From: a virus
Lineage: Duplodnaviria > Heunggongvirae > Uroviricota > Caudoviricetes
DNA: 40,620 bases
IMG/VR virus record: IMGVR_UViG_2563366828_000005
Strand: one strand, 5' to 3'
Shown: in pieces, positions 1,419 through 18,814 of the stretch
How positions within the stretch are numbered: the first letter of the stretch is position 1
Layout of the letters: each line of letters opens with the position of its first letter
Position numbers and translations under genes: made by a program
Notes under the pieces: model-generated
Told to the model about the DNA's origin: nothing
The model's input: only the letters and a program-made list of their open reading frames with translations
Databases searched by the model: none

Positions 1419-2489
1419 TTATTTGATTTCAATTTTGTCCCACTCCCTGCCTCTGTCATCACGATACTGTGATGCCATGGTGTCCGACTTATGCCCGAGA
1501 AGATGTTGAGCAAACTTATCGCTTATCTGCTTCTCATAGAGTCTTGCAGACAAACTGCGCAACTCGTGAAAGGTAGGCGGATCCCCTTCGAAGGAAAGAC
1601 CTGATGCTTTTCGTGCGCGCATAAAATACCTTGATACTGTGCCGGATGAAAGCGGTTCGCGACGAGTAGATGCAATTATGGTTTCTCCGCCAAGAATCTC
1701 TTTGCATTTATCAAGTGTTTCCTTCATTGATATTCCGAGAGCATCAACATGCAATGCTGTTGGGATGGCAATTTTTACGCCTGTTTTGCTTTGCTCGACA
1801 TAAAGATATCCATCTACGATATCAGACCACTTCATTTCGCATAAATCACCAACTCGCTGCCCGGTAACAACAGCCAGTTCCATTGCAAGTCTAAGCCAAC
1901 ATGGTGATGATTCTGCTGCTTGATAAATTTTCAGGTATTCGTCAGCCGTAAGTCTTGATCTCCTTACCTCTGATTTTGCTGCGCGAGTGGCAGCGACCGG
2001 GTTTGTTGTTATATGGCCTTCAGCTATTGCCTCTCGGAATGCATCGCTCAGTGTTGATCTGATTAACTTGGCTGACGCCGCCTTGCCCTCGTCTATGTAT
2101 CCATTGAGCATTGCTGCAATTTCTTTTGTGGTGATGTCTTCAAGTGGAACATCAGGTAGCCCCCTCCTTATTGCTTTAATTTTGCTCATGTAATTTATAA
2201 GTGTCTTCTGCTTGATTCCTCTGCTGGCGAGGATTTTTTCGTAGCGATCAAGCCATGAATGTAACGTAACAGAATTATCACTGTTGATTCTCGCTGTCAG
2301 AGGCTTGTGTTTGTGTCCTGAAAATAACTCAATGTTTGCCTGTATTGCTTCAGTAATTGCTATCCTCCTGTCTCTGCCTAATCCGAACTCTTTACCCGTC
2401 CTTGGGTCCCTGTAGCAGTAATATCCATTGTTTCTTATATAAAGGTTAGGGGGTAAATCCCGGCGCTCATGACTTCGCCTTCTTCCCAT
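1419..2489 (-). CDS. int: Tyrosine integrase, lambda Int type
   Basis: 356-aa ORF starting MGRRRSHERRDLPPNLYIRNNGYYCYRDP, recognised as lambda Int; adjacent to att core. Confidence 0.95.
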   Translation of the reverse strand: MGRRRSHERRDLPPNLYIRNNGYYCYRDPRTGKEFGLGRDRRIAITEAIQANIELFSGHKHKPLTARINSDNSVTLHSWLDRYEKILASRGIKQKTLINYMSKIKAIRRGLPDVPLEDITTKEIAAMLNGYIDEGKAASAKLIRSTLSDAFREAIAEGHITTNPVAATRAAKSEVRRSRLTADEYLKIYQAAESSPCWLRLAMELAVVTGQRVGDLCEMKWSDIVDGYLYVEQSKTGVKIAIPTALHVDALGISMKETLDKCKEILGGETIIASTRREPLSSGTVSRYFMRARKASGLSFEGDPPTFHELRSLSARLYEKQISDKFAQHLLGHKSDTMASQYRDDRGREWDKIEIK

Positions 2490-2685
2490 TTCTGATCCTC
2501 TTCAAAAGGCTACCTGTTACTGGTCGATTTAAGTCAACCTTTACCGCTGATTCGTGGAACAGATACTCTCTTCCATCCTTAACCGGAGGAGGGAATATCC
2601 TGCATTCGCGCACCCATCGACGAACTGTTTCAAGGCTTCTTGGGCGTCGCTGGCGAGCGTTCCACTCCTGAAGTGTCAAGTACAT
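2467..2685 (-). CDS. xis: Excisionase Xis
   Basis: 72-aa product MYLTLQEWNARQRRPRSLETVRRWVRECRIFPPP = lambda Xis; overlaps int start as in lambda; the longer ORF in the track is an upstream in-frame extension. Confidence 0.9.
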   Translation of the reverse strand: MYLTLQEWNARQRRPRSLETVRRWVRECRIFPPPVKDGREYLFHESAVKVDLNRPVTGSLLKRIRNGKKAKS

Positions 2686-2799
2686 CGCAAAGTCTCCGCA
2701 ATTACACGCAAGAAAAAGCCGCATTGATGCGGCGATGGTAGGTCTGGATATCATTGAGCAATGAACAGGCCTCATCGAGTGTGAGGCTGTATGGCTCTA

Positions 2800-3144
2800 T
2801 TATTTCACCTCTTGTTGTGACATTGTTGAAAAATGGATACCAGCTCGTTGCTGCCAGATGATCCAACCGAGAGTCATATCCCATGCCATGTATTCGTTAT
2901 CGCCGTTTTTTGCTCTCCGACGATCGACTGTTTTACCGAAACGCTTTTCCATAAATAATTCATAGGCTGCGCGTTCATCTGGCTCAACTTCCAGAGATGC
3001 CAGTGCAATCCGTGCCAGTTCTAAATCATTTTCAAGCTCAGCGCGAATCTCAGCGAATGCACTCTGTGTTAAGGCGAACTCAATGCTCTGCACTTTATTC
3101 CGTGCGCGCTCAAGCAGTGCATGGTAGTTAATTTCGGTTGTCAT
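2800..3144 (-). CDS. Hypothetical early-left protein (114 aa)
   Basis: ORF whose start overlaps the stop of the upstream PAPS-reductase-like gene (ATGA-style coupling); no family recognised. Confidence 0.5.
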   Translation of the reverse strand: MTTEINYHALLERARNKVQSIEFALTQSAFAEIRAELENDLELARIALASLEVEPDERAAYELFMEKRFGKTVDRRRAKNGDNEYMAWDMTLGWIIWQQRAGIHFSTMSQQEVK

Positions 3145-4019
3145 ACCCCTACCTCTTCGAATTCCAATTCCAATTGATCACCCCAGATTTCACATGACTC
3201 TGAACACGAGCCGGTATCGAATCGCCTGGCCTGTACCATCGCCTGATACAAATTTCTGTAGTCGCTGTTGGCAGACATTCTGGCAATTCCGTCAAGCGTC
3301 AGGTGACCACGGTACATAATGTCTTTACCTGTTCTGCGATGACCATCCCTGACGTGTTTGCCTGTAACCAGCTCATTAAAAACTCGCATCAGACCTGGTT
3401 CGTCTTTACATGCAAGCCCCAGCTTTTGCGTTGACTTTTTGATGCAGAAAACACAGTTCCCGAGATGCTCCGGGATTTGCAAATCAAAAGGTTGTTTTCG
3501 CCACCACCGGATAACATCCGACTTATCAAAATCTGACAGCTCGGCAAGATACCGGACGCCCGATTTCGGTTTCAGCCTACGGGGTTCGTCTGCACGAATA
3601 CCCAGCCATGTGATGTAATTACCTCGCCCGAAATGGTTATCGCAGTATTTCGTGAAAGGGATGAGTTTTAGCCTGTCAGTACAGAACGCGCCGCCGATGT
3701 ATGGCGTGCCGTACTTTTTAACCATGTCCATAAACGGTTTAAGCACCGGCATTCGTGTCTGAATATCCGTTGGCTCCCATTCTGTATAACCATTTGGCTG
3801 CCCAAGCTCAGGATTTATATCGACCTGTAACACAGTTAGTGGTATGTCCCAGAACTTCACAACCTCCCGGATAAAGCGGTATGTCAGCGGATGTTCGCAA
3901 CCGGTATCCATAAAGATGTAGCAGACGTTATTGCCAGCCTTTCTTTGTTCTTCCATCAGGTGAACAAGATATGCGGATGTTCTCCCGCCAGAAAAACTAA
4001 CTACATGAGTTATGCACAT
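3141..4019 (-). CDS. PAPS reductase-like / PP-loop ATP pyrophosphatase superfamily protein
   Basis: 292-aa ORF with N-terminal SFSGGRTS PP-loop-like motif and a C-terminal Cys cluster (CVFC, CSESC); family call by motif only. Confidence 0.7.
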   Translation of the reverse strand: MCITHVVSFSGGRTSAYLVHLMEEQRKAGNNVCYIFMDTGCEHPLTYRFIREVVKFWDIPLTVLQVDINPELGQPNGYTEWEPTDIQTRMPVLKPFMDMVKKYGTPYIGGAFCTDRLKLIPFTKYCDNHFGRGNYITWLGIRADEPRRLKPKSGVRYLAELSDFDKSDVIRWWRKQPFDLQIPEHLGNCVFCIKKSTQKLGLACKDEPGLMRVFNELVTGKHVRDGHRRTGKDIMYRGHLTLDGIARMSANSDYRNLYQAMVQARRFDTGSCSESCEIWGDQLELEFEEVGV

Positions 4020-4546
4020 TTGCGTAATTCCGATAACTCGTTGAAGCGTTCCATAAACATCCCGTAGGCATGGCCCGGTGCCAGTGGAATAACTTTGAAC
4101 ATCTCTGTTGCCGGGATACCTTCCAGTACTGGCCAGAAAGAGCCATCATCAAGCCCGAGATCGCGGCGTTCAGTTGCCAGCATGATGAGATCGGCATATT
4201 TCACGGGTGTACTCATAACTGGGGGTAACCCGTATTTCTCACGGATTACGGCGTCTATTTTTTCTTCCATCCGTTTATAGTCAGGAAGAAGGCGTTTCAG
4301 TGGCGCCGGGATGTCCTGGCAATACGCTTCTGTTGCATCATGCATTAACGCTTCAAAAGCAAATTCCTGCGGCACCAGTTGGCTGCAAAGCACCGCATGT
4401 TGGGCGACGCTGTAGAAATGTGAAAGATGTCCTGCAAAGCGACAGATATTTGAAAGGGAAACCGCGATATCGTTAATAACGATGTCGTCTTGATTTATCT
4501 TGTCATAATAAAAATGCTTCCCGGAAAAAGTTTTAATAAATGACAT
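4010..4546 (-). CDS. HD-domain phosphohydrolase (YfdR-like 5'-deoxynucleotidase family)
   Basis: 178 aa from MSFIKTF; H..HD metal-binding motif (SHFYSVAQHAV, LMHDATEAY); the upstream in-frame extension in the track is probably not translated. Confidence 0.7.
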   Translation of the reverse strand: MSFIKTFSGKHFYYDKINQDDIVINDIAVSLSNICRFAGHLSHFYSVAQHAVLCSQLVPQEFAFEALMHDATEAYCQDIPAPLKRLLPDYKRMEEKIDAVIREKYGLPPVMSTPVKYADLIMLATERRDLGLDDGSFWPVLEGIPATEMFKVIPLAPGHAYGMFMERFNELSELRKCA

Positions 4547-4673
4547 TTTGTTCTCCACGTATATGCGCTGCACCGCGCTGAATTCTGGTAAAAGGAAGTC
4601 CTCACCATCCGGCGATTATTGAGTTAATTACGTTTCCATAAATTCCCCCGCAGGGGCATTTGCAGTAATGAAA

Positions 4674-5498
4674 TCAGGCGGTGAAAGTACCAATAAAGGT
4701 TTCTACTTTGCTGTCTTTGAATTTCTCAACAAGCAGATCACGAAATTCGTTAGCCATTTCTTCCTGCACCGCTTCCAGCTGAATAATGCGCAGAACCAGT
4801 ACAGGACGATCGCCAGTGATAATGCTGAGGCGTAATTTAAATGGACGTTCTTTCAGGCCTTCAAACGGAACGCATTTAAATTCAAATGCCACTGGCATAA
4901 TGTCTTTGGTCTTCGCTTCGACAGACTCCATCAGGGAGCGTTTGCCGCTGAAGTCATTATCTTCAAAATCAGCGGTCTGGTTCGCTTCAATTGTGATTTT
5001 ACGGATAGCCGCCGCCGCTTTGGTTGCCTGAATGGCGTCACCATTAGCATCAAAGCCCACAAGGTAGTCGGCCCAGTCTTCAATCCATTCTGCCAGTGAT
5101 TTCTGGGAGTTACGCTCGCCATTAACAGACAACAGAGCAGAGAACGGTGCTGTCTTTTTCAGTTTGAGAGTGGCGGTGTTATCTGCGTGACCTGGTTCAT
5201 CAATAGTACCCAGGTTAAGCACACTGACGGCACGCATATTATCAGCATCGATAAAGCAGCGGGTGCCTTCATCTGCAAGATCTTTAGAATAACGGGTAAA
5301 GTCATCGATGCTGGCAGTGGAAAGCGCACCACGGAAACGGAAGCGATTTAAATTAAATTTTTCCAGATCATGAATGCGGAAATTCTCAGGCAATGCCACA
5401 GCATCGGCACCAATCTTACTGATAATTTCATTAACACCCTGAGCAGAAATAAGGGCATGGATTTGATTAATTGCGGTTGCGTCTAAGTTCTGAGACAT
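4674..5498 (-). CDS. DUF2303 (YfdQ-like) family phage protein
   Basis: 274-aa ORF; size and gene order (120-aa, 274-aa, 178-aa HD, PP-loop protein) resemble the yfdP-yfdT block of E. coli CPS-53 as recalled; not verified. Confidence 0.5.
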
Positions 5499-5563
5499 AA
5501 TAAGTCCTCACTATATAAAGATATTCAGTGATGAGATAAATAATCGGTTAATTAAGAACGATA

Positions 5564-5926
5564 TTAATGACCTGCTGCGCGGAGTTTTCCGTCAGGTTCA
5601 CCGGCAAGAGTCAGTAATTGTCCCTGGTCTTCCTGCAGAATAGTCAGGCGACCACCGCGATTGACATACATCGGCGTTTCGGTGGTGTCTTCTTCGGAAA
5701 TTTTCCCGCGGTTAGTCGGGCGAACATATGAGAGTTTGTGTTTGATTTTCACACGGTTCTCATCAAATGGTTCGATTTCCAGGTTGAGTGAGACCTTACC
5801 TTTGGTTTTCGTGTTCATCACACCGGAAGCGACTTCACTGAGAACTGCGCCGATTTTGGTTTCAAATACGCCGCCGTCCAGCTCCCCGATAAATGCCTGC
5901 ACATCAGTACTGCGTTCGCTAGCCAT
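5564..5926 (-). CDS. Hypothetical early-left protein (120 aa)
   Basis: Start chosen at ATG (MASERSTDVQ) preceded by GGAG about 9 nt upstream; the 226-aa ORF in the track extends into a GC-rich non-coding stretch and is probably too long. Confidence 0.5.
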   Translation of the reverse strand: MASERSTDVQAFIGELDGGVFETKIGAVLSEVASGVMNTKTKGKVSLNLEIEPFDENRVKIKHKLSYVRPTNRGKISEEDTTETPMYVNRGGRLTILQEDQGQLLTLAGEPDGKLRAAGH

Positions 5927-5949
5927 TTTGCTGCTCCTCATCATATCGA

Positions 5950-6390
5950 CCCTGCAAGGTCGGTTAGTTTCTCCACAAAACAGAGAAGAACACCTGCGGT
6001 GACTGCCGCCCGGATGGATTGGGTTATGAGCCCGTCGTCCGGTGATGCTCTTCTCTGTTTTGTAAAAAGGACGGTACCAGCCGGAAGCAAGGGTACAAAC
6101 TGGTACCGCCAGGACTACACACAGCATAAAGTTGTGGTGCCGGGTGCCTCCCGGTGCCTGGCGAAGGTTGCACACCAGGCGGGTGGGTATCCACAGAAGG
6201 TCGACTGTCAGCCTCAACCTTAACCCGCGTGCGCTGAGCCGCATTCACCACAACGCTAAGGATTCTCTCTGGTTGAAAATACTTAGCTGTTATGTGCCTG
6301 CTTTTAGCCACATCAGGCGAGGTGGACCTGGTTATTCCCCAACAACAAGGATTCGGTTAATCTGGTTATCCCCAACAACGCAAAAGGAAA
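5950..6390. other. GC-rich, highly structured non-coding stretch (candidate ncRNA or regulatory element)
   Basis: No convincing ORF; 15-bp perfect inverted repeat ACAAAACAGAGAAGA (5975-5990 / 6049-6063), GGTACCAG/CTGGTACC inverted repeat, tandem GGTTATyCCCCAACAAC motif (6340-6380). Confidence 0.3.
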
Positions 6391-6394
6391 AGAA

Positions 6395-6829
6395 ATGTCC
6401 GGTAATATCTATACGCTGTACAAATCCCACTGTGAAAATGTTGGAAAGTATCGGGGCATTGAAATCAGTGGGGTAGTGTCATCAGTCGAAATAAGCAAAG
6501 TTGAATCAAGGGCAACATTACTTACTCTTCTGGACCTTGTCTTAAATGAGCACCGGAAGAAATTCGGCACACCCTATAATCAGTTGAATGGGAAAAAGGC
6601 TCTGGTTCACCTTATTCTGATGAAGCATCACTGGATGCCAAAACAGATTAATGAGATGAAATTTGATGAACTTCTTCTTTCAATTCAGGATGAACTCACG
6701 CTTGATAAAATAAGTGTAACCGCCCAGAAATTTTTAGATTATCGAGACTGGAGATCACAAATTCATCACTTTGATGATTTTGACGAAAATGAATGGGATC
6801 CTAATTTGTCTGCACAATATCTAAAGTAA
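6395..6829 (+). CDS. Hypothetical 144-aa protein, AT-rich moron on the strand opposite the early-left operon
   Basis: Clean ORF with AAGGA about 10 nt upstream; AT-rich versus flanks; hairpin plus T-run terminator downstream on the same strand. Confidence 0.55.
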   Translation: MSGNIYTLYKSHCENVGKYRGIEISGVVSSVEISKVESRATLLTLLDLVLNEHRKKFGTPYNQLNGKKALVHLILMKHHWMPKQINEMKFDELLLSIQDELTLDKISVTAQKFLDYRDWRSQIHHFDDFDENEWDPNLSAQYLK

Positions 6830-7007
6830 CATCCTGTGATAAAACCGTGATTTCCTGATCCAGTTTTTTTAAGGAGTCTATTGTTTCCTGTCGATAAGAC
6901 AGCACTTCACGAAGCTGGTTTATAGCTGCCAGCTTCTTTGTCATCCACTCATAAATTTCCTCATCTGTGTAGCCAGGCGCGACGATTTTTGGTTCTGTTT
7001 TGTGCAT
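6801..7007 (-). CDS. Hypothetical 68-aa protein, first ORF downstream of the putative PL
   Basis: ATG (MHKTEPKIV) preceded by GAGGAGG at 6-nt spacing; 3' end overlaps the convergent 144-aa gene by 29 nt. Confidence 0.45.
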   Translation of the reverse strand: MHKTEPKIVAPGYTDEEIYEWMTKKLAAINQLREVLSYRQETIDSLKKLDQEITVLSQDVTLDIVQTN

Positions 7008-7064
7008 TTCACACCTCCTCAAGTTATCAGTTACTTGTTGATGGGGACCAGATTGTTAAAGAGC

Positions 7065-7090
7065 GAAGCGTCCTATAGGGCGCTTTTTTT
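7065..7090 (+). terminator. Intrinsic terminator, plus strand
   Basis: Stem AAGCGTCC / GGGCGCTT with TATA loop followed by TTTTTT. Confidence 0.45.
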
Positions 7091-7263
7091 GTTGCTAACG
7101 AATCATCCGGTCATTCATACGCCACCGGCGGCTACTTCGTGGGCGTCCTGCCTGTTCGTTTTTGACATTTACTGACCTCTTACGACACATGCACCGTGCA
7201 CCGTGTTGCAACCAGATTTTGTTGTAATCCTGTAGTTGGTCTGGAACAAAAGATAAAATTAAA

Positions 7264-7300
7264 TTGCGAGATATGCAAGTAATATTTGCGAAATATGCAA
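7264..7300. promoter_or_regulatory. Putative OL operators / PL region
   Basis: Two 15-bp sites TTGCGAGATATGCAA and TTGCGAAATATGCAA 7 bp apart; same TTGCG-type motif recurs in the cI-cro intergenic region. Confidence 0.45.
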
Positions 7301-7310
7301 AACGGTGGGT

Positions 7311-7334
7311 AATAAAAAGCCACCTTTCGGTGGC
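7311..7334 (-). terminator. Intrinsic terminator downstream of cI
   Basis: On the minus strand: stem GCCACC / GGTGGC followed by a U-rich tract, 20 nt past the cI stop. Confidence 0.5.
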
Positions 7335-7354
7335 CGATGGATGGGATATTGAGG

Positions 7355-8047
7355 TTAATTATGTCTCTTAAGGGTTTGCGACTGACTGATTAAGACCTTT
7401 CCAAAGACCATAAATCGGTGTTCGTTTTCGCTAGTAATTCCCCATTCACGGTAAATCTGGTTATCAGAAATCACCAGCAGTTTGTCAGGAATCATTTGAA
7501 GTCTTTTAACGTATATTTTGTCATCAAAACCAAAGACATATATACCATCACCATCAAACTGATTGATGCTGACATCAACGAAGATGAGATCTCCTGGCTC
7601 AATGGTTGGACACATACTGTCCCCACGAACGTTGATAACTTTGATGTGATTGGCTGGTCGTCCGCCGAACATTGATACAGCATTATCAGTTCTGTATTCG
7701 ATGGCATGAATCACATCAATGACATCACCGCCCTGGATAAGGCCATTTCCCGCACTGGCACTGATATCCAGCATTTCAATACGGAACACATCCTTCACCT
7801 GCGCAACATCCTCATTATTACTGTTTTTATATACAGTATTACTTTTGAGGGCAGAGGTAAAGAGATCAGCAATATCAACACCTAAGCTCTTGGCAATATT
7901 ACTCAGTGTTTGTTCGGTAAATTGTTTTTGCTTACCCGTTTCTAAGCGCGAGATGTTCGCCGCATCTACTCCTATTGCTTCAGCGAGATCGGCGATTTTC
8001 ATGTTCTTCGCTTGGCGAAGTTGTCTGACTCGGTTTCCTATGTTCAT
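7355..8047 (-). CDS. cI: CI-type prophage repressor (HTH_XRE N-terminal domain, S24 LexA-like peptidase C-terminal domain)
   Basis: 230-aa ORF; N-terminal HTH (QLRQAKNMKIADLAEAIGVDAANISRLETG), C-terminal GDSMCPTIEPGDLIFVD autocleavage-type motif; divergent from a cro-like gene. Confidence 0.85.
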   Translation of the reverse strand: MNIGNRVRQLRQAKNMKIADLAEAIGVDAANISRLETGKQKQFTEQTLSNIAKSLGVDIADLFTSALKSNTVYKNSNNEDVAQVKDVFRIEMLDISASAGNGLIQGGDVIDVIHAIEYRTDNAVSMFGGRPANHIKVINVRGDSMCPTIEPGDLIFVDVSINQFDGDGIYVFGFDDKIYVKRLQMIPDKLLVISDNQIYREWGITSENEHRFMVFGKVLISQSQTLKRHN

Positions 8048-8144
8048 GCGTTTATTACATTTCTTTATTGCGTGATAAGCAAATCAACTTGCGCAAAATA
8101 ATTGCGTGAAATAACATGCATAACGCGCAATATTTGGAGGGTAT
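8048..8144. promoter_or_regulatory. OR / PRM-PR divergent promoter-operator region
   Basis: 97-bp AT-rich intergenic region between divergent cI and cro-like genes with repeated TTGCG(T/C) motifs (e.g. TTGCGTGATAAGCAA at 8068-8082). Confidence 0.55.
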
Positions 8145-8405
8145 ATGCAATCACCATTACGAAATGTGCGTAAGGCGCATGGTTTCACTTTGCAGCATGT
8201 TGCTGCGGGTGTTCAAGTCAATCCAGCGACGTTGAGTCGTATTGAGAGGCTGGAGCAGATTCCATCTATCGAACTTGCAGAACGTTTAGCCAATTTTTTT
8301 AAGGGTGAAGTCAGCGAAATGCAGATTCTTTATCCGGCACGTTTTCAATCTAGCCAAAACCAGAATGGGTTTAAACCACAGGAACAGGAGGTAAGCCGTG
8401 GGTAA
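8145..8405 (+). CDS. Cro-like HTH transcriptional regulator
   Basis: 86-aa ORF with HTH (GFTLQHVAAGVQVNPATLSRIERLEQ); divergent from cI. Confidence 0.65.
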   Translation: MQSPLRNVRKAHGFTLQHVAAGVQVNPATLSRIERLEQIPSIELAERLANFFKGEVSEMQILYPARFQSSQNQNGFKPQEQEVSRG

Positions 8406-8949
8406 GCATCATTGGAAAGTGGAAAAACAACCTGAGTGGTACGTGAAAGCTGTCAGAAAAACTATCGCGGCATTGCCAGGGGGTTACGCTGAAGCTGCTG
8501 ACTGGCTGGATGTAACAGAGAACGCTTTATTCAACCGCCTTCGTGCAGATGGCGATCAGATTTTCCCGTTGGGATGGGCAATGGTTTTACAGCGTGCTGC
8601 TGGCAATCACCACATTGCGGATGCTGTCGCACAGTCTGCTGGTGGGGTGTTTGTATCACTTCCTGAAATTGAGGAAGTAGAGAACGCCGATATCAACCAG
8701 CGCCTGTTGGAGGTTATTGAACAGATCGGCAGTTATTCAAAACAGATTCGTTCAGCAATTGAAGACGGGGTGGTGGAACCACACGAGCAGGCAGCAATTA
8801 ACGACGAGCTGTACATGTCAATTTCGAAGCTGCAGGAGCATGCAGCACTGGTCTACAAAATCTTTTGCGCTCCAGAAAAGAGTGACGCCCGCGAGTGTGC
8901 AGCTCCGGGCGCCGTGGCGTTTTGTGTCTGTGGAGAAACTAACGCATGA
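8398..8949 (+). CDS. Hypothetical regulatory protein in the CII position (possibly YdaT-like)
   Basis: 183-aa ORF overlapping the cro-like stop; position matches cII / ydaT of lambdoid prophages; family not verified. Confidence 0.4.
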
Positions 8950-9284
8950 ACAGTTTAACAACACACTACCGTCGCTCGCAACTGATTGCGCTTCCTGTAC
9001 CGGGTGGAAAAGCGAAGGTGGAATATTGCTATGCAGTGAATGTACCAGGTGACAGGGAAATTGTAACCCACAGCTTTGCTGAGTGGGCTGTGGGTGATTT
9101 CAACCGGCAGAAGGAGACAGTCCTTTGCGACAAGTTAACCGCTGGTTCAAAGATCACTACGGAGTGCCCGTCAGAGTCATTCGTTGGGAACCGGAAACAC
9201 AACGGGTTATCTACCTCCGCGAAGGCTATGAGCATGAATGCTTCAGTCCGCTCGAACAGTTTCGTCGTAAATTCAGGGAAATAG
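8946..9284 (+). CDS. Hypothetical protein, possibly frameshifted
   Basis: 112-aa ORF start-coupled to the upstream gene; C-terminal half is Ser-rich and odd while a different frame (9125-9304) reads as more typical protein. Confidence 0.3.
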
Positions 9285-9293
9285 AGGTCGGTC

Positions 9294-10235
9294 ATGAGCA
9301 CTAAATTAACCGGCTATGTATGGGATGGTTGCGCTGCGTCAGGCATGAAGTTATCCAGCGTGGCAATTATGGCCCGCCTGGCTGATTTCAGTAATGACGA
9401 AGGTGTGTGCTGGCCATCAATTGAAACCATTGCCCGCCAGATTGGCGCGGGGATGAGTACCGTCAGAACGGCTATCGCACGACTGGAAGCAGAAGGCTGG
9501 TTAACGCGTAAGGCGCGTCGCCAGGGTAACCGCAATGCGTCGAATGTTTATCAGCTTAACGTTGCGAAGCTTCAGGCAGCGGCATTTTCTCAACTGTCAG
9601 ATTCTGACCCGTCAAAATCTGACGCATCAAAATCTGACCCGTCAAAATTTGATGCGTCGAAATCTGGCAAAAAAGCGGGTTTTCACCCGTCAGAATCTGG
9701 CGGGGATCCGTCAGTAAAATCAAAACATGATCCGTCAGATAAAAAACCTTCTCGTCCGGACGCTTCGCAACCGGACACGCAGACGGCTGAACAGAATTTT
9801 TTAACTCGCCATCCTGATGCGGTTGTATTCAGCCCTAAAAAGCGCCAGTGGGGAACGCAGGATGATTTGACCTGCGCACAGTGGCTCTGGAAAAAAATCA
9901 TCGCCCTGTACGAGCAGGCCGCCGAATGTGACGGCGAGGTGGTACGTCCGAAAGAACCGAACTGGACAGCCTGGGCAAATGAAATTCGCCTGATGTGTGT
10001 ACAGGACGGTCGTACCCACAAACAAATCTGCGAGATGTACAACCGTGTCAGCCGCGACCCGTTCTGGTGCCGTAACGTGCTCAGCCCGTCGAAGCTGCGG
10101 GAAAAATGGGATGAACTTTCCCTGCGCTTATCGCCGTCCGTCAGCACGTACACAGAAAAACGCGAAGACCCGTACTTCAAAGCCAGTTACGACAATGTGG
10201 ACTACAGCCAGATCCCGGCAGGATTCAGGGGGTGA
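9294..10235 (+). CDS. Replication initiation protein (O-like, winged-helix N-terminus) containing the origin iterons
   Basis: 313-aa ORF; N-terminal HTH-like region; internal DNA direct repeats encode a reiterated DPSKSD peptide, as in lambda O with ori inside the gene. Confidence 0.55.
   Translation: MSTKLTGYVWDGCAASGMKLSSVAIMARLADFSNDEGVCWPSIETIARQIGAGMSTVRTAIARLEAEGWLTRKARRQGNRNASNVYQLNVAKLQAAAFSQLSDSDPSKSDASKSDPSKFDASKSGKKAGFHPSESGGDPSVKSKHDPSDKKPSRPDASQPDTQTAEQNFLTRHPDAVVFSPKKRQWGTQDDLTCAQWLWKKIIALYEQAAECDGEVVRPKEPNWTAWANEIRLMCVQDGRTHKQICEMYNRVSRDPFWCRNVLSPSKLREKWDELSLRLSPSVSTYTEKREDPYFKASYDNVDYSQIPAGFRG
9594..9740. repeat. Iteron-like direct repeats (putative origin of replication)
   Basis: At least six copies of CCGTCA(A/G)AATCTGA-like 12-14-bp units within the replication gene. 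Confidence 0.55.
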
Positions 10236-10720
10236 TCATGAGCCTTTTGAATGACGTTCAGAAATTCATTGAAGCCCATCCGGGGTGTACTTCCGGAGAC
10301 ATTGCGGATGCTTTTGCAGGTTACTCACGGCAGCGAGTTCTGCAGTCAGCAAGCAAGTTACGTCAGAGTGGGCGTGTGGCTCACCGTTGTGAAGAGGATA
10401 CACGCAGACATTTCCCGCGCCAGGCTGAGATATCGCAGGAGCCGGAACCAGTTTGTGAAACCAGACCTGTGCGCAATTTCTATGTCGGCACTAACGACCC
10501 CCGGGTGATTTTGTGCCTGACCCGCCAGGCTGAAGAACTGGAGTCCAGGGGCTTATTCCGTCGAGCTGCAACGGTGTGGATGGAGGCATTCCGTGAAAGC
10601 CACTCCCAGCCAGAACGAAACAATTTTCTGGCGCGTCGTGAGCGGTGCTTACGGAAAAGCAGCAAGCGCGCTGCATCGGGTGAAGAGTGGTATCTGTCAG
10701 GGAATTACGTGGGGGCTTAA
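10232..10720 (+). CDS. Hypothetical protein (162 aa) in the P position
   Basis: ORF coupled to the replication gene stop; no Walker motifs, so not an obvious DnaC/P-type loader. Confidence 0.4.
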   Translation: MIMSLLNDVQKFIEAHPGCTSGDIADAFAGYSRQRVLQSASKLRQSGRVAHRCEEDTRRHFPRQAEISQEPEPVCETRPVRNFYVGTNDPRVILCLTRQAEELESRGLFRRAATVWMEAFRESHSQPERNNFLARRERCLRKSSKRAASGEEWYLSGNYVGA

Positions 10721-11046
10721 TGACGACGTTAACTCAATGCCAGCAGCAGGTGCTGGATATGCTGATTTCTTACCAGAAAGAACGTGGCTTCCCGCCAACC
10801 AATCAGGAGGTGGCTACCATGCTGGGATACCGTTCAGTGAATGCAGCGGTGGAGCATCTTCGCGCACTGGAGAAAAAAGGCGTCATCACGATAAAGCGTG
10901 GCGTGGCCCGGGGCATCACGCTTCATACCGCGGTGAAGGACGACGATAGCGAGGCGGCCGGGATTATCCGCGCACTGCTTGCTGGTGAGGAAAACGCCAG
11001 GCCGCGTGCAGCCCACTGGTTACATGAGAGGGGGCTGAAAGTATGA
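10720..11046 (+). CDS. LexA-like N-terminal DNA-binding domain protein (winged helix only, no peptidase domain)
   Basis: 108 aa from MTTLTQCQQQVLDMLISYQKERGFPPTNQEVATMLGYRS, resembling the LexA DNA-binding domain; start overlaps the upstream stop. Confidence 0.5.
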   Translation: MTTLTQCQQQVLDMLISYQKERGFPPTNQEVATMLGYRSVNAAVEHLRALEKKGVITIKRGVARGITLHTAVKDDDSEAAGIIRALLAGEENARPRAAHWLHERGLKV

Positions 11047-11432
11047 AGCTGATTCTGCCTTTTCCACCCAGCGTGAACACCTACTGGCGACACCCCAACA
11101 AAGGGGCATTTGCTGGTAAGAGCCTGATAAGCGCGGCGGGGCGAAAATTCCAGAGTGCGGCGTGCACAGCAATAGTTGAGCAGTTACGTCGTCTGCCGAA
11201 ACCAACGTCGGCACCTGCTTCAGTGGAGATCGTGTTGTTTCCTCCGGATAACCGGATCCGCGATCTGGACAACTATAACAAGGCGCTGTTTGACGCCCTG
11301 ACCCACGCGGGTGTGTGGGAAGACGACAGCCAGGTGAAAAGAATGCTGGTTGAGTGGGGACCGGTTATCCCGAAAGGGAAGGTCGAGATCACTATCAGTA
11401 AGTACGAGAAAACGGCGGGTGCAGCCGCCTGA
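11043..11432 (+). CDS. rusA: Holliday junction resolvase RusA
   Basis: 129-aa ORF MKLILPFPPSVNTYWRH, DxDN motif, typical nin-region position. Confidence 0.8.
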   Translation: MKLILPFPPSVNTYWRHPNKGAFAGKSLISAAGRKFQSAACTAIVEQLRRLPKPTSAPASVEIVLFPPDNRIRDLDNYNKALFDALTHAGVWEDDSQVKRMLVEWGPVIPKGKVEITISKYEKTAGAAA

Positions 11433-11451
11433 TCAAGAGGAGAAACGAAGT

Positions 11452-12261
11452 ATGAATAATCTGATGGTCATTGATGGTATTGAAGTTCGTCGTGATGCTT
11501 ATGGGCGTTACAGCCTGAACGATCTGCATCGCGCAGCAGTAGCATCTGGTGCAAATGCCAGAACCAAGGAGCCAGGAAAGTTTCTTTCCAGCCAACAAAC
11601 TGTTGAGCTTGTTCATGAATTGACCAACACCCAGAATTTGGGTGTTGACCCGGTGAGTGTGATTCATGGGGGAAATGAACGGGGAACGTATGTCTGCAAG
11701 GAACTGGTGTATGCCTATGCAATGTGGATCAGTCCGTCATTCCATCTGAAGGTGATCCGTACTTTCGATATGATAACCAGCACACTGGAAAAATTATCCG
11801 GGCAGGCTGCTGACAAGATGCAGGCTGGCGTGATCCTGCTGGACTTTATGCGCCGGGAGTTAAACCTGTCTAACTCTTCAGTGCTTGGTGCCTGTCAGAA
11901 ACTCCAGGAGGCTGTTGGCTTACCGAATCTGGCACCGCGCTATGCCATTGATGCTCCTGCTGATGCACACGATGGCTCAAGTCGCCCGACACTGTCACTG
12001 AGTGCACTGTTGAAACAGTATGGTATCCGCCTGACGGCTAATCAGGCATATCACCAGATGGTGAAGCTGGGGATCGTCGAGCAGCGCGAACGATACAGCC
12101 GTACCGCGATTAACAACATCAAAAAATTCTGGTCGCTGACAGCGAAAGGCTGCATGTTCGGCAAGAACATCACCAGTCCCGCAAATCCGCGCGAGACGCA
12201 GCCACACTTCTTCGAATCCCGATTCCCTGAGCTGTTAAAGCTGCTCGATACCGTTCATTGA
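11452..12261 (+). CDS. KilA-N domain protein
   Basis: 269 aa from MNNLMVIDGIEVRRDAYGRYSLNDLHRAA with AGAGGAG upstream; the longer ORF in the track overlaps rusA and is probably an extension. Confidence 0.5.
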   Translation: MNNLMVIDGIEVRRDAYGRYSLNDLHRAAVASGANARTKEPGKFLSSQQTVELVHELTNTQNLGVDPVSVIHGGNERGTYVCKELVYAYAMWISPSFHLKVIRTFDMITSTLEKLSGQAADKMQAGVILLDFMRRELNLSNSSVLGACQKLQEAVGLPNLAPRYAIDAPADAHDGSSRPTLSLSALLKQYGIRLTANQAYHQMVKLGIVEQRERYSRTAINNIKKFWSLTAKGCMFGKNITSPANPRETQPHFFESRFPELLKLLDTVH

Positions 12262-12262
12262 G

Positions 12263-13258
12263 GTGACCGTGAGAGCACTACTGACCCCTGAAATTGCCCC
12301 GCGTATGGGGATCGTATTGTTCAGACCCGGTTCAGAGCTGATGCCCCTGTTTATGCAGGGGCGTGTCCTGCTGGAGCCTGAGCCGGAGCGTTATTCATCT
12401 TTCGCCAGTGGTGCCGTTCCGGCGGTATCACAACCGCTGGCGGATGATCCTGCCGTTCGGGCCGTGTTCCGCAATGAGGCAGTGATCCGTCGTGCTGGTG
12501 GCGTGGAATGTCTTGAAAGCTGGTTACTTCGTGAAAAAGGCTGCCAGTGGCCTCATTCCGACTGGCACAGCGAGAACATGACCACAATGCGACACGCGCC
12601 GGGTGCAATCCGTCTGTGCTGGCACTGTGATAACCAGCTGCGCGATCAGTTCACGGAACGGCTGGAATCAATGGCAACGGATAACTGTGCCCGCTGGGTG
12701 TTGTCTGTTGTGCGTCGGGATCTCGGTTTTGATGACAGTCACGTTGTGACAATGCCGGAACTGTGCTGGTGGCTGATTCGTAATGACCTGGCGGATGCCT
12801 TACCGGAAAGTGCAGCCTGTAAGGCACTGAGATTACCGAAGCCTGTTGTGCCGTCTGTCACCCGGGAAAGTGACCTTGTTCCTTCGGTTCCTGCCACCAG
12901 CATCATCCAGGATAAAGCGAAAAAGGTGCTGGCGCTGAAAGTGGATCCGGAGTCGCCGGAGTCTTTTATGTTACGCCCAAAACGTCGCCGCTGGGTTAAT
13001 GAAAAGTACACGCGCTGGGTTAAGACGCAGCCGTGTGCATGTTGTGGAAAGCCTGCTGATGATCCCCACCATCTGATAGGCCACGGTCAGGGGGGAATGG
13101 GTACAAAAGCGCATGATCTCTTTGTGTTGCCTTTGTGCAGAAAGCATCACGACGAGCTGCATGCGGATACCATGGCATTTGAAGAGAAGTATGGCTCCCA
13201 GCTGGAGTTGATATTTCGTTTTATCGATCGTGCGCTGGCAATTGGTGTGCTGGCCTGA
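12263..13258 (+). CDS. DUF968 (YdfU-like) nin-region protein with C-terminal HNH-like Cys/His motif
   Basis: 331-aa ORF with GTG start; C-terminal CACCGKPADDPHHLIGHGQGG...CRKHHDELH. Confidence 0.5.
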   Translation: MTVRALLTPEIAPRMGIVLFRPGSELMPLFMQGRVLLEPEPERYSSFASGAVPAVSQPLADDPAVRAVFRNEAVIRRAGGVECLESWLLREKGCQWPHSDWHSENMTTMRHAPGAIRLCWHCDNQLRDQFTERLESMATDNCARWVLSVVRRDLGFDDSHVVTMPELCWWLIRNDLADALPESAACKALRLPKPVVPSVTRESDLVPSVPATSIIQDKAKKVLALKVDPESPESFMLRPKRRRWVNEKYTRWVKTQPCACCGKPADDPHHLIGHGQGGMGTKAHDLFVLPLCRKHHDELHADTMAFEEKYGSQLELIFRFIDRALAIGVLA

Positions 13259-13275
13259 TTTTGTGGAGAAAGTTG

Positions 13276-13632
13276 ATGCGTGATATGTATGAAGTAATGG
13301 ATCGTTGGGGAGCTTGGGCTGCTTCAGACAATAGCGGAGTGGACTGGCAGCCGATAGCGGCTGGTTTCAAGGGACTTTTACCTCATGGCAAAAAGTCACG
13401 GATTCAGTGTGATGATGACGAAGGCATCATGATAGACAGTTGTGTGGCTCGGTTGAGAAGGTATAAACCAGAGGAATATGAGCTCATCATCGCCCACTTT
13501 GTTATCGGTATCTCATTACGCACTATTGCGAAGAAGAGAAAATGCTCTGATGGCACAATTAGGAAGGAACTGCAAACTGCAATGGGGTTTGTTGACGGCT
13601 GTTTAGCAATGTTAGCTTATAGTATGGCATAA
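13276..13632 (+). CDS. Q: Late-gene antiterminator Q (phage 21/82 type)
   Basis: 118 aa from MRDMYEVMDRWGAWAASDNSGVDWQPIAAGFKGL, recalled as phage-21-type Q; GGAG 8 nt upstream. Confidence 0.75.
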   Translation: MRDMYEVMDRWGAWAASDNSGVDWQPIAAGFKGLLPHGKKSRIQCDDDEGIMIDSCVARLRRYKPEEYELIIAHFVIGISLRTIAKKRKCSDGTIRKELQTAMGFVDGCLAMLAYSMA

Positions 13633-14102
13633 AAAATAAAATAGATTTACTGCCGATTTTTCAAAAAAGACTGGGAACTGTTTATATCCAACGTAAATAA
13701 GGCCTCCATAAAACATGGCTGATGCGAGATATTTAACAGTTCTCATCCTTTTTTTAGCTTTATCAATCAAACCTGTAATGCTACTCTTAATACTATCTGC
13801 ATTATCTTTGATTTCTTTATTTTCTTCAAACTTTAAATACTTATCGAAAGCGGACTCCACTCGAGAACGTAAGTTGTCGAATGTTTCATTGAATATCTCA
13901 ATAGAAATGTAATTGACTTTTTTTATCATCCAAAGTCCTGCGATAATCAATATTGCCTCGGTTGTTTCATTAGCCTTCACTAAGCCACCAGCAGCTATTA
14001 ATGCACCGGGAATAGTCAATGCTTTTGTCTGATTAGATGATATGAATGGTGATGCTGCCAACTTACTGATTTAGTGTATGATGGTGTTTTTGAGGTGCTC
14101 CA

Positions 14103-14378
14103 GTGGCTTCTGTTTCTATCAGCTGTCCCTCCTGTTCAGCTACTGACGGGGTGGTGCGTAACGGCAAAAGCACCGCCGGACATCAGCGCTATCTCTGCTC
14201 TCACTGCCGTAAAACATGGCAACTGCAGTTCACTTACACCGCTTCTCAACCCGGTACGCACCAGAAAATCATTGATATGGCCATGAATGGCGTTGGATGC
14301 CGGGCAACCGCCCGCATTATGGGCGTTGGCCTCAACACGATTTTCCGCCATTTAAAAAACTCAGGCCGCAGTCGGTAA
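14103..14378 (+). CDS. insA: IS1 InsA
   Basis: 91-aa ORF with zinc-finger motif CPSC...CSHC, matches IS1 InsA. Confidence 0.95.
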
Positions 14379-14800
14379 CCTCGCGCATACAGCCGGGCAG
14401 TGACGTCATCGTCTGCGCGGAAATGGACGAACAGTGGGGATACGTCGGGGCTAAATCGCGCCAGCGCTGGCTGTTTTACGCGTATGACAGGCTCCGGAAG
14501 ACGGTTGTTGCGCACGTATTCGGTGAACGCACTCTGGCCACACTGGAGCGTCTTCTAAGCCTGCTGTCGGCCTTTGAGGTCGTGGTATGGATGACGGATG
14601 GCTGGCCGCTGTATGAATCCCGCCTGAAGGGAAAGCTGCACGTAATCAGCAAGCGTTACACTCAGCGAATTGAGCGGCATAACCTGAATCTGAGACAACA
14701 TCTGGCAAGGCTGGGACGGAAGTCACTGTCGTTCTCAAAATCGGTGGAGCTGCATGACAAGGTCATCGGGCATTATCTGAACATAAAACACTATCAGTAA
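14297..14800 (+). CDS. insB: IS1 InsB (normally expressed as InsAB' fusion via -1 frameshift)
   Basis: 167-aa ORF matching IS1 InsB, overlapping insA in the -1 frame. Confidence 0.9.
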
Positions 14801-15604
14801 GTTGGAGTCATTACCATATGAATTCGTTAATTTTACTCGTGAACTCAAGATTTTTCTCATCGAGTTCGTTAAGAATTTTATTTACAGAAAACCTCTTTGT
14901 GTAAATCTCATATAGTTCATCATATTTTTTCCTGACGAGTTCAGTAGAGTTAAGCAAGTCAAAGAAATTGAACGTACCATTTGCTTTAAATACTTCGTTT
15001 ATGGCTGAGCGTATAACGAGCTTGCGCTCGCTTTTGTGTAAATCATTGATTTTTATTGTGTCGAGAAGCTCCTTTATAATTTCATATTTAAGAGACGAGT
15101 TCGATAAGCGATTAATCTCGCTATATTGTAAAAAATGCGTGAGTTCGACTGTATAACTTTTGTCTTCATTGGTGAAAAATAAGACAGAGCAGTCACTGTT
15201 ATGATGATCAGCAATTAATGAAAGGATATCTTTCCACATAAAGAAAATATGGATTTTTTCGATGCTTTCATTCTTAGAAGTAGGGAGTATTAACGGCGTT
15301 CCGATGATATAATTTTTCGGAAGAGCGTTTTGGGTGTTTACTCTAGACCAAAAAGACTCAACATTCTCATAAATTATAGCGTCATCCCAAGATGAAGCTT
15401 GGCGATCTAGCCAAATTTCATTATTTTCGATGCAGGTTGTTGCCTTTTTATAACCTATAGATTGTAACAGTCTAATTATTTCAGAACTATTTACAATAAC
15501 AATGCTTTCTTCAAGACTTATGACAGTGTAGTAGCCCTCAACTCTGCTTGAGGCTCCGTTAATAATCTGCGCTAATCTTGATAAGTCATCAGCAATTGTC
15601 ATTA

Positions 15605-16780
15605 TTAGCTGTCTCTATATCTTTTGAGTTCATCATAATTTGCCTGACTCAATTTTATCACAATTTCGCATTTGTTGTCAGTGAGAATTACAGGCTTATT
15701 TGACTTTTCGTCTCCAATAGCTCCACGCATTATTTTCAACTTAAAATTATTGTCGTTATCTGCCACTTCAATTGTAAGCGCGCTTTCAGCTGCTTTAGGA
15801 GTTGGTTCAAATTGAGGGTCAATCTGGAAACCATTAAGATTAACAAAATCGACAAACGTTCCCTTACATTTGTGTGAATCAGTCAGGCATGAGTCAATTA
15901 TTTTTGAAATATCCTCTATCTTAACGGACTTATTTCCGTGTTTATCTTTTGATTTTTTTTCCAGTAAGGATTTAACTTCGTTGTCAATAGTATCACGCAG
16001 TACACGACCGAGTGAGTTTTTACTAGCAAAAATATCTATAGCACTGAATAATTGCTGAATGCTTCTTTTATTGTCCGAATCATGTCGGCAACCTAATGAG
16101 TCTTTGAAAAAATCGCTTTTAGATTTACCTTGCAAGAAATGTACATATGAGTCACCCTTGTTTTCTGGATAACTGGCTTCGAATAAAGTTAAATCGAACA
16201 TCGCAGCCTGCCGTAAGGCATCGGTATTAATTGGATTTAATCTTGTTGGGGTCAACTTATCCGAATCAAAGTCATAGGCGCTTTGTTTATCAACCATTAC
16301 GATTAGAAGTTTCCCCAAATCCTCTGGTTCGGTAGACTTATAGTGGATGAAAACAACGCTCCCCCCCTGAAGTTGGGCAACTCTCGATTCGTTATTAGCA
16401 TTATGTTTAAGCTTCTCTATTATAGCTCTAGATAAATCAATGAATTCATTATTTTTATTAATGTATTTTTTTAGGATCGTAGGAATGGATGAAGGGTTGT
16501 GATCTGAGTCTAGGAAGTTATGAAATTTGTTTTTTCGGCTAAATTTTTTCTCAATTCTGGTTATGAATTCAGATGTGACTTCATTTTTTAGATCCCAAAC
16601 TTCACCTAATCGATAATCAAATGCTCTTGAATCATTTTTTTCAAGATTTGCTGTTACAGCACCAATAGGAAAGTACGATTGTTTGCCCAGCACTACAACA
16701 TGAGGCGTGGCACCGCATTTATCGCAAGCTACAGTTGGGTCGTCAAGAACATTGCCACATTCTAAACAAGTTATATCCAT
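15605..16780 (-). CDS. Hypothetical 391-aa protein with N-terminal zinc ribbon; first gene of the two-gene cassette
   Basis: AT-rich ORF; CLECG...CDKCG at residues 5-22; stop is 2 nt from the start of the downstream IS1-disrupted gene. Confidence 0.6.
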   Translation of the reverse strand: MDITCLECGNVLDDPTVACDKCGATPHVVVLGKQSYFPIGAVTANLEKNDSRAFDYRLGEVWDLKNEVTSEFITRIEKKFSRKNKFHNFLDSDHNPSSIPTILKKYINKNNEFIDLSRAIIEKLKHNANNESRVAQLQGGSVVFIHYKSTEPEDLGKLLIVMVDKQSAYDFDSDKLTPTRLNPINTDALRQAAMFDLTLFEASYPENKGDSYVHFLQGKSKSDFFKDSLGCRHDSDNKRSIQQLFSAIDIFASKNSLGRVLRDTIDNEVKSLLEKKSKDKHGNKSVKIEDISKIIDSCLTDSHKCKGTFVDFVNLNGFQIDPQFEPTPKAAESALTIEVADNDNNFKLKIMRGAIGDEKSNKPVILTDNKCEIVIKLSQANYDELKRYRDS

Positions 16781-16897
16781 TATATATCCCGAATTATAAG
16801 AATGAATTTTTATGTGGCTGAAAATTCTATCAAAACACTAACGCGTACGCAAAAAGTATTGTATTGTGTTAAGAGTGGTTACTTCGCCACACAGCTT

Positions 16898-16929
16898 AAA
16901 CCCGCCGTCGAGCGGGTTTTGTCGTTTCT
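16898..16929 (+). terminator. Hairpin plus T-rich tract upstream of the lysis cassette (possible tR'-type terminator)
   Basis: AAACCCGC / GCGGGTTT stem followed by TGTCGTTTCT in the 291-bp intergenic region before the holin gene. Confidence 0.35.
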
Positions 16930-17071
16930 GGGCCTGGGGATTCGTTGGGCCTAGTCTATCCCGCAGTTATCCATTGGCTCGGCTTCTTTGACGTTTCCGC
17001 TTCTGATTTGCGGTACATGATGTTTCCTCAATTTGCACCTGCTGTATCAGCGAGGTGAGAGATAACTACAA

Positions 17072-17398
17072 ATGCCTCATAACCCAAATACTTGGCTGGA
17101 GTTGGTCCAGAGCTGGTGGCGTGGAGACACACCGCTGGGCGCAGTGATTATGTCGATCGTTATGGCTGGCTTGCGCATTGCCTATTTTGGCGGTGGTGGT
17201 GGCTGGAAGAGAAAAACGCTCGAGATTTTGCTCTGTGGCGCTCTGACGCTGACCTTTGCATCCGCTCTTGAATATGTCGGATGGCCTAAATCGCTTTCTG
17301 TTGCCATTGGTGGTGGCGTGGGGCTGATCGGTGTCGATGCTATTCGTGGGGCTGCAATGCGAGTAATCGGTAACAAATTTGGTAGCTCGAAGGAGTAA
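17072..17398 (+). CDS. Holin (three predicted TM segments)
   Basis: 108-aa ORF directly upstream of the endolysin with three hydrophobic segments and a charged C-terminus. Confidence 0.6.
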   Translation: MPHNPNTWLELVQSWWRGDTPLGAVIMSIVMAGLRIAYFGGGGGWKRKTLEILLCGALTLTFASALEYVGWPKSLSVAIGGGVGLIGVDAIRGAAMRVIGNKFGSSKE

Positions 17399-17401
17399 TT
17401 T

Positions 17402-17878: not shown

Positions 17879-18254
17879 GCTGGTTATTGTTGCCTTCGTT
17901 GTTAGCGTCATTGGTTCCTTCATCTGGTCTGCTGGACATTACTACAGCAAATATCAGCACGAAAAGGAGCGTGCTGATGAGGCTGTACGAAATGCTGAAT
18001 CAGCAACTGCCATTACCCGTAACGTTCTGCAATCACTGCAAATCATCAATACAGTTATAGAGGCTAACCAGCATGCAAAACAGCAGATCGCACTGGAGTC
18101 ACAGAGAACCCAGGAAGATATCAAAGTGGCTGTTGCGGATGATGATTGTGCTTCAAGTCATGTGCCTGCTGCCGCTGCTGACCGGTTGCGGAAGTACGCG
18201 AACAGTTTACGTGCCGGTTCCGGCGGTACCGCTGCCAACAAGCCTGACCACTGA
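17862..18254 (+). CDS. Spanin inner-membrane subunit (Rz-like)
   Basis: 130-aa ORF with N-terminal TM segment then coiled-coil-like region, overlapping the endolysin stop. Confidence 0.55.
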   Translation: MKLRYKLVIVAFVVSVIGSFIWSAGHYYSKYQHEKERADEAVRNAESATAITRNVLQSLQIINTVIEANQHAKQQIALESQRTQEDIKVAVADDDCASSHVPAAAADRLRKYANSLRAGSGGTAANKPDH

Positions 18255-18434: not shown

Positions 18435-18435
18435 C

Positions 18436-18741: not shown

Positions 18742-18814
18742 GCTCTCGCATAGTGAAGGAATTTTCAGATTAACTCATTTTCAGACGCATCGTAATGGCT
18801 TAAGGAAACAATTA

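Follow-up and report, generated by a model that had tools for sequence, protein, structure and literature searches.

The window analysed here is the whole of IMG/VR virus record IMGVR_UViG_2563366828_000005, a stretch of 40,620 nucleotides (nt). It starts with Escherichia coli ybhC followed by a lambda-type int/xis pair, as seen in its open reading frames (ORFs) and in the RefSeq annotation of an identical locus, and this start identifies it as a lambdoid prophage that occupies the attachment site of lambda. The subject of this report is the block of five genes at positions 2800-5926. The block is already known: it consists of the named genes yfdP, yfdQ and yfdR, a yfdT-like gene, and a homolog of lambda NinC, and it is annotated in hundreds of genomes. 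From the comparisons below, it is evidently made of two evolutionarily independent accessory units, a mosaic and not a pathway. The explanation favoured, held as a whole with little more than even confidence, is that a DnaA-inhibiting yfd unit and a NinC cassette directed against phosphorothioate-based defence together form a mosaic part of the early-left operon (xis-proximal, equivalent to the 'ea/b-region') of an SfV-like lambdoid prophage, which is without recombination (Rec) genes and rich in Chi sites.

Five ORFs, all on the minus strand, come after xis (Table 1), in agreement with the original prediction, which was made from the sequence alone. The domains it assigned are also confirmed, with matches to PF01507 for the PP-loop/phosphoadenosine phosphosulfate (PAPS) reductase, phrog_318 for the HD protein, and PF10065 for the DUF2303 protein. 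Translational coupling of the block holds for yfdR, the ninC-like gene and the yfdT-like gene, which overlap by 10 nt (ATGTGCATAA) and 4 nt (ATGA), respectively. It does not extend to the yfdP/yfdQ and yfdQ/yfdR junctions, which are gaps of 65 and 127 nt. The start of yfdR is taken at 4546 as in RefSeq, giving 178 amino acids (aa), while the longest ORF extends to 4573. RefSeq already names the products YfdP, YfdQ family, yfdR 5'-deoxynucleotidase, and 'PAPS reductase family protein'.

The first unit, yfdP-yfdQ-yfdR with the yfdT-like gene, encodes almost the same proteins as its counterpart in the CPS-53 prophage of E. coli K-12. YfdP, YfdQ and YfdR are 99.2%, 99.6% and 98.3% (over 178 aa) identical to the K-12 proteins. 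Residues 36-114 of the yfdT-like protein are 84% identical to K-12 YfdT, and over the final 69 aligned residues the protein has 93% identity with SfV orf28. YfdQ matches PF10065 (DUF2303) at E 6e-93, with residues 7-272 covering profile positions 2-269 of 269, and PDB entry 9o7m ('YfdQ Protein', 36 chains) matches the DUF2303 profile at E 7e-59. YfdR matches phrog_318 at E 5e-111, its nearest solved relative is the HD protein PDB 2gz4 (E 2e-13), and the HD residues are intact in the sequence (H49 and the H68-D69 dyad). The Pfam YfbR-like model falls narrowly under its cutoff for YfdR (24.1 vs 25.9). Pfam and NCBIfam scans gave no matches for YfdP or the 114-aa yfdT-like protein, and the PADLOC scan gave none for YfdP, YfdQ, YfdR or the yfdT-like protein.

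The boundaries of the second unit are set by DNA homology. In blastn comparisons with K-12 CPS-53 and SfV, identity of 97-98% extends from 5945 (K-12) or 6300 (SfV) to 4012, the yfdR stop codon, where it ends; homology restarts at 3009, inside the yfdT-like gene, at 92-93%. In K-12 and SfV, the slot is occupied by the DUF551 gene yfdS/orf29, and K-12 YfdS is a 120-aa DUF551 protein distinct from the PP-loop enzyme. The start codon has the same position within the last yfdR codons in the ninC-like and yfdS versions. Because homology breaks at the yfdR stop and resumes inside yfdT, the ninC-like gene is a cassette of ~1 kb that took the place of yfdS and of the yfdT 5' end. The CPS-53 (KpLE1) cluster yfdP-yfdQ-yfdR-yfdS-yfdT and SfV orf32-orf28 otherwise share with the window the gene order and orientation beside xis, a YfdT-like last gene, and an overlap of 10 nt arranged in the same way at the yfdR stop. 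They differ in having yfdS/orf29 and the yfdT 5' end where the window has the ninC-like cassette, and in their attachment sites, argW or thrW, whereas the window prophage has a lambda-type int/xis at ybhC. A protein of 294 aa, P0021, has 86% identity over 88% of the NinC-like protein, with a DUF551 (YfdS-type) end in place of SCSESCE; it looks like a recombinant of the two alternative occupants of the slot, NinC and DUF551.

The block is common. A megablast of 2700-6300 finds it at 99.9% identity in E. coli chromosomes, at least 80% of it in 272 complete E. coli genomes, and parts of it in 3704 of 5426; the ninC-like gene is present in 429 of these 5426 genomes. A census of 80 IMG/VR loci encoding NinC homologs shows yfdR/yfdQ/yfdP beside NinC in one group alone, the E. 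coli lineage in which NinC has at least 93% identity with the window protein. Elsewhere, copies adjoin ninB in the nin region (19 loci) or Dam-like methyltransferases (~15), and in ~9 loci NinC lies just downstream of exo/recT. The yfdPQR genes occur without NinC in SfV, K-12 and LLS. The division of the block into two independent units rests on the homology breaks and on two facts of distribution: NinC and yfdPQR are linked in one lineage only, and yfdPQR occurs without NinC.

The same facts bear on the reading of the five genes as a single nucleotide-pool/DNA-hypermodification pathway, in which the HD protein clears canonical deoxynucleoside monophosphates (dNMPs), the PP-loop enzyme builds a modified base, the DUF2303 protein is accessory, and the phage genome is modified. 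Phage base-modification pathways do include HD dNMP/dNTPases and PP-loop enzymes, QueC for example, and in the window the genes are co-directional with three of them overlapping. YfdP-like, DUF2303 and NinC-like genes also lie near each other in Shiga toxin (Stx) 2a phages. Such a pathway is nevertheless improbable. The ninC-like gene came into the yfdS slot by a cassette swap whose edges are sharp breaks in homology, yfdPQR is widespread without NinC, and NinC is widespread without yfdPQR, as Vibrio phages and the nin region of lambda show. Genes for transglycosylase, base synthesis, and glycosyl or aminoacyl transfer were not found among the early-region ORFs scanned, and the nucleotide affinity of YfdR is reported to be low (PMC4776307). 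As for the nucleotide-pool role suggested by the original prediction, no evidence supports the HD protein acting jointly with the PP-loop enzyme.

The ninC-like protein is 79% identical to lambda NinC (tblastn, residues 2-287 vs lambda 41078-41935) and 93% identical to the product of a left-arm gene of Stx2a-converting phages. It matches PF01507 (PAPS_reduct) at 35.2 bits vs a cutoff of 22.5 and phrog_424 at E 1e-90. Lambda NinC (orf290) has the same length of ~290 aa, and the identity extends over 98% of it. The lambda gene, however, belongs to the early-right operon, where it lies beside ninB in the nin region, whereas the window copy is in the early-left operon beside yfdR, a position it shares with the Stx2a phage copy. 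The PP-loop, S8-F-S-G-G-R-T-S15 with the canonical SGGxxS, is essentially invariant across NinC family members. Among 38 members, down to 28% identity, all have C113, C189, C192 and C276 and at least 90% have C272, which bears out the C-terminal cysteine cluster of the original prediction; these PP-loop and cysteine alignments left out lambda NinC itself. Judged by its sequence, the protein is a PP-loop ATP pyrophosphatase in which C113, C189, C192, C272 and C276 probably form an iron-sulfur (Fe-S) or persulfide-carrying set. Its AlphaFold 2 model has a predicted local distance difference test (pLDDT) score of 85.7, and the nearest folds are Fe-S adenosine phosphosulfate (APS) reductase, CysH/PAPS reductase, LarE and MnmA, with template-modelling (TM) scores of just 0.35-0.5.

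Existing annotation suggests another role for this gene, that of an auxiliary metabolic CysH-type PAPS reductase which boosts host sulfate assimilation: PHROG lists the family as 'moron, auxiliary metabolic gene', RefSeq as 'PAPS reductase family', and the PF01507 match is in keeping with both. The profile evidence makes this very improbable. The NCBIfam equivalog NF002537 for CysH scores 20.1 bits vs a cutoff of 154, and the profile alignment to solved PAPS/APS reductases is limited to ~100 N-terminal residues, with the low TM-scores given above. The protein has an SGGxxS PP-loop of the ATP pyrophosphatase type where CysH has SSSFG, and its cysteine pattern is GNCxFC...SCSESCE, without a motif of the ECGLH type, the C-terminal catalytic cysteine motif of CysH. 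In addition, the fusion partners of NinC proteins are repeatedly DNA methyltransferases and not sulfur-metabolism enzymes. By sequence, therefore, the protein is a member of the NinC family and not a sulfate-assimilation CysH, the homolog that would have spoken against the original prediction.

Among defence-system hidden Markov models (HMMs) of PADLOC, SspD is the best match for the ninC-like protein (E 1.2e-14, residues 5-152 only), with weaker matches to BrxP (3e-4) and DndC (6e-3). NinC has the PP-loop superfamily and cysteine richness in common with DndC, SspD and BrxP, and DndC is a [4Fe-4S] protein. It differs from these systems in having no adjacent genes for a nucleoside triphosphatase (NTPase), DNA recognition (DndE/SspB) or a desulfurase. 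Moreover, the window NinC is phage-encoded and the sole related phenotype is anti-defence, whereas DndC, SspD and BrxP serve defence.

The wider family points to DNA. When 1.84 billion representative proteins were searched with a profile, 3160 NinC relatives were found, and six of the ten long family representatives scanned are fused to N6-adenine DNA methyltransferases. The order is NinC-Dam in P0241, P0249 and P0272, and Dam-NinC in P0242 and P0243, whereas P0250 has NinC fused to a separate D12 methyltransferase family; the partners thus span two methyltransferase families, PF05869 and PF02086. Salmonella phage Oslo has a Dam gene and a ninC gene that overlap. The sole NinC family member with a phenotype is p0018 of Vibrio phage 44E38.1, a NinC-Dam fusion linked, together with p0019, to escape from DndFGH restriction. 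The N-terminal domain of the fusion has 55% identity over 96% of the ninC-like query and retains all of the conserved NinC cysteines. When p0018 and p0019 were transferred into a sensitive phage, full plating was obtained on a Dnd-carrying host. In contrast to the stand-alone NinC of the window, p0018 is fused to an N6-adenine methyltransferase and was tested together with p0019. A 2026 paper cites the Vibrio fusion as promoting Dnd evasion and lists phage PAPS reductases as candidate anti-defence genes. Phage NinC is not mentioned in the Aravind-lab reappraisal of Dnd systems. Two further candidates for relatedness were rejected: p0019 (DUF6475), the second Vibrio anti-Dnd gene, is not related to YfdR (E 69), and JSS1_004, a characterised anti-Dnd protein, is a kinase/shutoff protein unrelated to NinC.

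The SspD match, the repeated methyltransferase fusions, and the Vibrio anti-Dnd homolog together suggest that NinC probably has a DNA-directed or anti-defence role. Of the DNA-modification or anti-defence role once proposed for the whole block, this is the part that survives: it is the best-supported reading for the ninC-like gene alone, and the cassette swap argues against its extension to the block as one pathway. In the explanation favoured here, the second unit would be a NinC-family enzyme in the yfdS slot, mechanistically akin to the sulfur-inserting DndC/SspD subunits. It would most likely act on DNA, as an anti-restriction protein against phosphorothioate-based (Dnd/Ssp-type) defence. 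Phosphorothioation requires an NTPase (DndD/SspC/BrxC) and a DNA-recognition subunit (PMC12914056). Because no such partner is encoded beside NinC, its partners would be supplied by the host. With the Dam gene also missing, a stand-alone NinC would have to use host partners or else act as an inhibitor or decoy.

A more specific and tentative idea, to which we give only a small chance, is that NinC proteins are DNA-acting PP-loop/Fe-S enzymes which, jointly with an N6-adenine methyltransferase that sets the sites, install a DNA mark that has not been described. In many phages this partner would be the fused or adjacent methyltransferase, and for the stand-alone NinC of lambda and of the window it would be host Dam. 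The mark could be a phosphorothioate or another ATP-activated modification, and would make phage DNA 'self' to Dnd/Ssp-type defences.

The role of the yfd unit is suggested by work on K-12. YfdR binds domain I of DnaA at Phe46, in competition with DiaA and DnaB (Noguchi and Katayama, PMC4776307), and multicopy yfdQ and yfdR with either yfdS or yfdT suppress over-initiation and inhibit initiation at oriC (PMC4776307). The set of Q, R and T-like genes that is sufficient in K-12 is present in the window. A lambda-P-like role in the ancestral phage has been suggested for the Yfd proteins (PMC4776307). We infer that the most likely role of the unit is to damp host chromosome initiation in lytic growth, which perhaps would free DnaB to the benefit of phage replication.

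Several points weigh against the explanation as a whole. For NinC, no biochemical activity has been reported for any protein of the family, lambda ninC is dispensable, and lambda DNA is not known to carry phosphorothioate or another NinC-dependent modification. The similarity to the SspD and DndC HMMs is confined to the N-terminal nucleotide-binding half of the protein. Neither PADLOC nor Pfam scans of the neighbours found an NTPase or DNA-recognition partner beside the ninC-like gene, and tblastn with phage queries found no Dam-type methyltransferase in the window. The Vibrio swap involved two genes, one with a Dam domain, so that the PAPS-like domain alone is unproven as the cause. For the yfd unit, fold searches with the YfdQ AlphaFold 2 model (pLDDT 76.7) gave no informative match; 9o7m did not appear in the Foldseek PDB copy dated April 2026. 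Deletion of yfdQRST has no initiation phenotype and the effect is seen only on overexpression, an artefact of which is conceded as possible by the authors (PMC4776307). The lambda two-hybrid map shows NinC without interactions.

The yfd genes, and possibly ninC, could instead serve the lysogen as lysogenic-conversion genes for tolerance of H2O2, acid and methyl methanesulfonate (MMS) stress. Deletion of yfdQ or yfdS in K-12 reportedly raised sensitivity to H2O2, and deletion of yfdQ sensitivity to MMS (cited in PMC4776307). The cluster is also still complete in a cryptic prophage, with 98-99% identity, and parts of it are widespread, as given above. These phenotypes, however, are weak and come from screens. 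The genes lie in a repressor-controlled early-left operon, downstream of terminator-like sites, and functional phages such as SfV, LLS and the Stx phages conserve them as well. A benefit to the lysogen is therefore a minor possibility, and damping of host initiation in the lytic cycle is preferred.

The original prediction also placed the block in the position of exo/bet/gam. Homologs of exo, recT and ninB were not found in the window when phage sequences, lambda bet and gam not among them, served as tblastn queries, and no RecT or Exo match was better than E 0.2. PHROG and NCBIfam scans of the early-left ORFs found no recombination genes either. Since the block lies between xis and the immunity region, the site of the lambda red genes, in a prophage where recognisable Rec genes were not found, it could be taken for a recombination module that has gone unrecognised and does the work of exo/bet/gam. 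This is a highly improbable reading in view of phage Lys12581Vzw (equivalent to ArgO145), which carries kil-abrB-gamL-recT-exo-ssb upstream of YfdP-like, DUF2303 and NinC-like genes, with a different gene at the yfdR position. In that phage, then, one form of the block is present alongside a complete Rec module. That the yfdPQR-type cluster is not a Rec substitute is also concluded, and argued explicitly, by Casjens, Smith and colleagues (PMC12315714). In addition, the YfdQ model did not resemble the folds of Rad52, RecT, Erf or Gp2.5. The block corresponds to the lambda accessory region between exo and xis and not to the red genes, and the absence of exo/bet/gam is a trait separate from it.

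The number of Chi sites also points away from a substitute and to reliance on RecBCD. Chi (GCTGGTGG) occurs 11 times at 8638-27959, nine of them on the plus strand, vs 1.34 expected, and a count of 11 was reached in none of 100 shuffles. Lambdoid phages without a Rec module are rich in Chi (PMC12315714). Because it is without Rec genes and has an excess of Chi, the prophage fits this 'no Rec module, high Chi' lambdoid class, which relies on host RecBCD. Members such as LLS, ST64B and phiNP are, like the window, without exo/bet/gam and have yfbR(yfdR)/yfdQ/yfdP homologs in the early-left operon. Chi in the LLS class is over-represented and mostly on one strand, as in the window, although the window prophage has 11 sites in ~39 kb and LLS has 23 in 42.9 kb. 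In contrast to the LLS class, the window prophage has an SfV-like late region with gtr genes.

Table 1. Positions of the block, its cassette, and the flanking left-end and immunity features in the window.
Feature	Position	Strand	Basis
int and xis, lambda-type, adjoining ybhC; left end of the prophage	1419..2685	-	ORFs; RefSeq of identical locus: ybhC, tyrosine recombinase, excisionase
yfdT-like gene, 114 aa, divergent N-terminus	2800..3144	-	phrog_660 E 7e-24; similarity to K-12 YfdT and SfV orf28
Mosaic cassette in place of yfdS (DUF551) and yfdT 5' end	3010..4011		blastn breaks vs K-12/SfV
ninC-like PP-loop/Cys-rich PAPS-reductase-family gene, 292 aa	3141..4019	-	PF01507, phrog_424, lambda NinC
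yfdR, HD-domain 5'-deoxynucleotidase/DnaA-binding protein, 178 aa	4010..4546	-	phrog_318; K-12 YfdR
yfdQ, DUF2303, 274 aa	4674..5498	-	PF10065 full length; K-12 YfdQ
yfdP, 120 aa	5564..5926	-	phrog_204 E 1e-49; RefSeq 'protein YfdP'; K-12 YfdP
cI-like repressor; immunity region, origin of early-left operon	7355..8047	-	phrog_4 and phrog_6201 repressor families; RefSeq: XRE family regulator

Just upstream of yfdP, RefSeq marks a frameshifted hypothetical gene at 5941-6251 (minus strand). An ECs1072-family phage-associated gene (6395-6829, plus strand; NF033230, E 5e-46) lies antisense in the early-left region and is moron-like. An Rfam scan of 2400-8300 found no RNA families, a repeat scan found only short repeats at chance level, and a sigma-70 promoter scan was uninformative (2 sites vs 9.4 expected).

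Early-right operon (9294-13632): the genes encode an O-like initiator, a PerC-like activator, a LexA-family repressor, RusA, a KilA-N protein, a DUF968/HNH protein, and a Q-like antiterminator. A lambda P-like helicase loader was not found in this operon, and its nin position has no copy of NinB or NinC.

Region 14297-16780: an IS1 transposase fragment (14297-14800, plus strand) adjoins a minus-strand operon of two genes with low G+C content (35-38%), located between the Q-like antiterminator and the lysis genes. The first gene encodes a YejK/NA37-family nucleoid-associated protein (15605-16780; PF04245, E 1e-23) and the second a protein of 263 aa without a Pfam match (14811-15602). 'PANGU' defence systems consist of a nucleoid-associated protein sensor and an effector (bioRxiv 10.64898/2026.04.06.716658). 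The pair resembles these systems and may be prophage-borne defence cargo.

Right end (37858-40620, minus strand): this part has genes for a GtrII-type glucosyltransferase and a GtrB-like family-2 glycosyltransferase, with an unscanned ORF at the gtrA position. As in Shigella phage SfV, the gtr genes make up a serotype-conversion module that modifies the O antigen; the prophage of the window has it together with a lambda-type integrase at ybhC.

The finding mainly corrects an impression, as the block is a common, annotated prophage mosaic and neither a new system nor a stand-in for Red. The prophage adds one example to the recently described class of Rec-less, Chi-rich lambdoid phages. What remains of value is a sharpened and testable hypothesis for NinC, an orphan gene of lambda for 40 years. 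The set of five cysteines, the fusions to two methyltransferase families in both orders, and the anti-Dnd homolog point to DNA-directed chemistry against phosphorothioate-based immunity. If NinC does install a DNA mark, lambda ninC would gain a function, and E. coli prophages of the window type would offer a tractable system for the NinC hypothesis.

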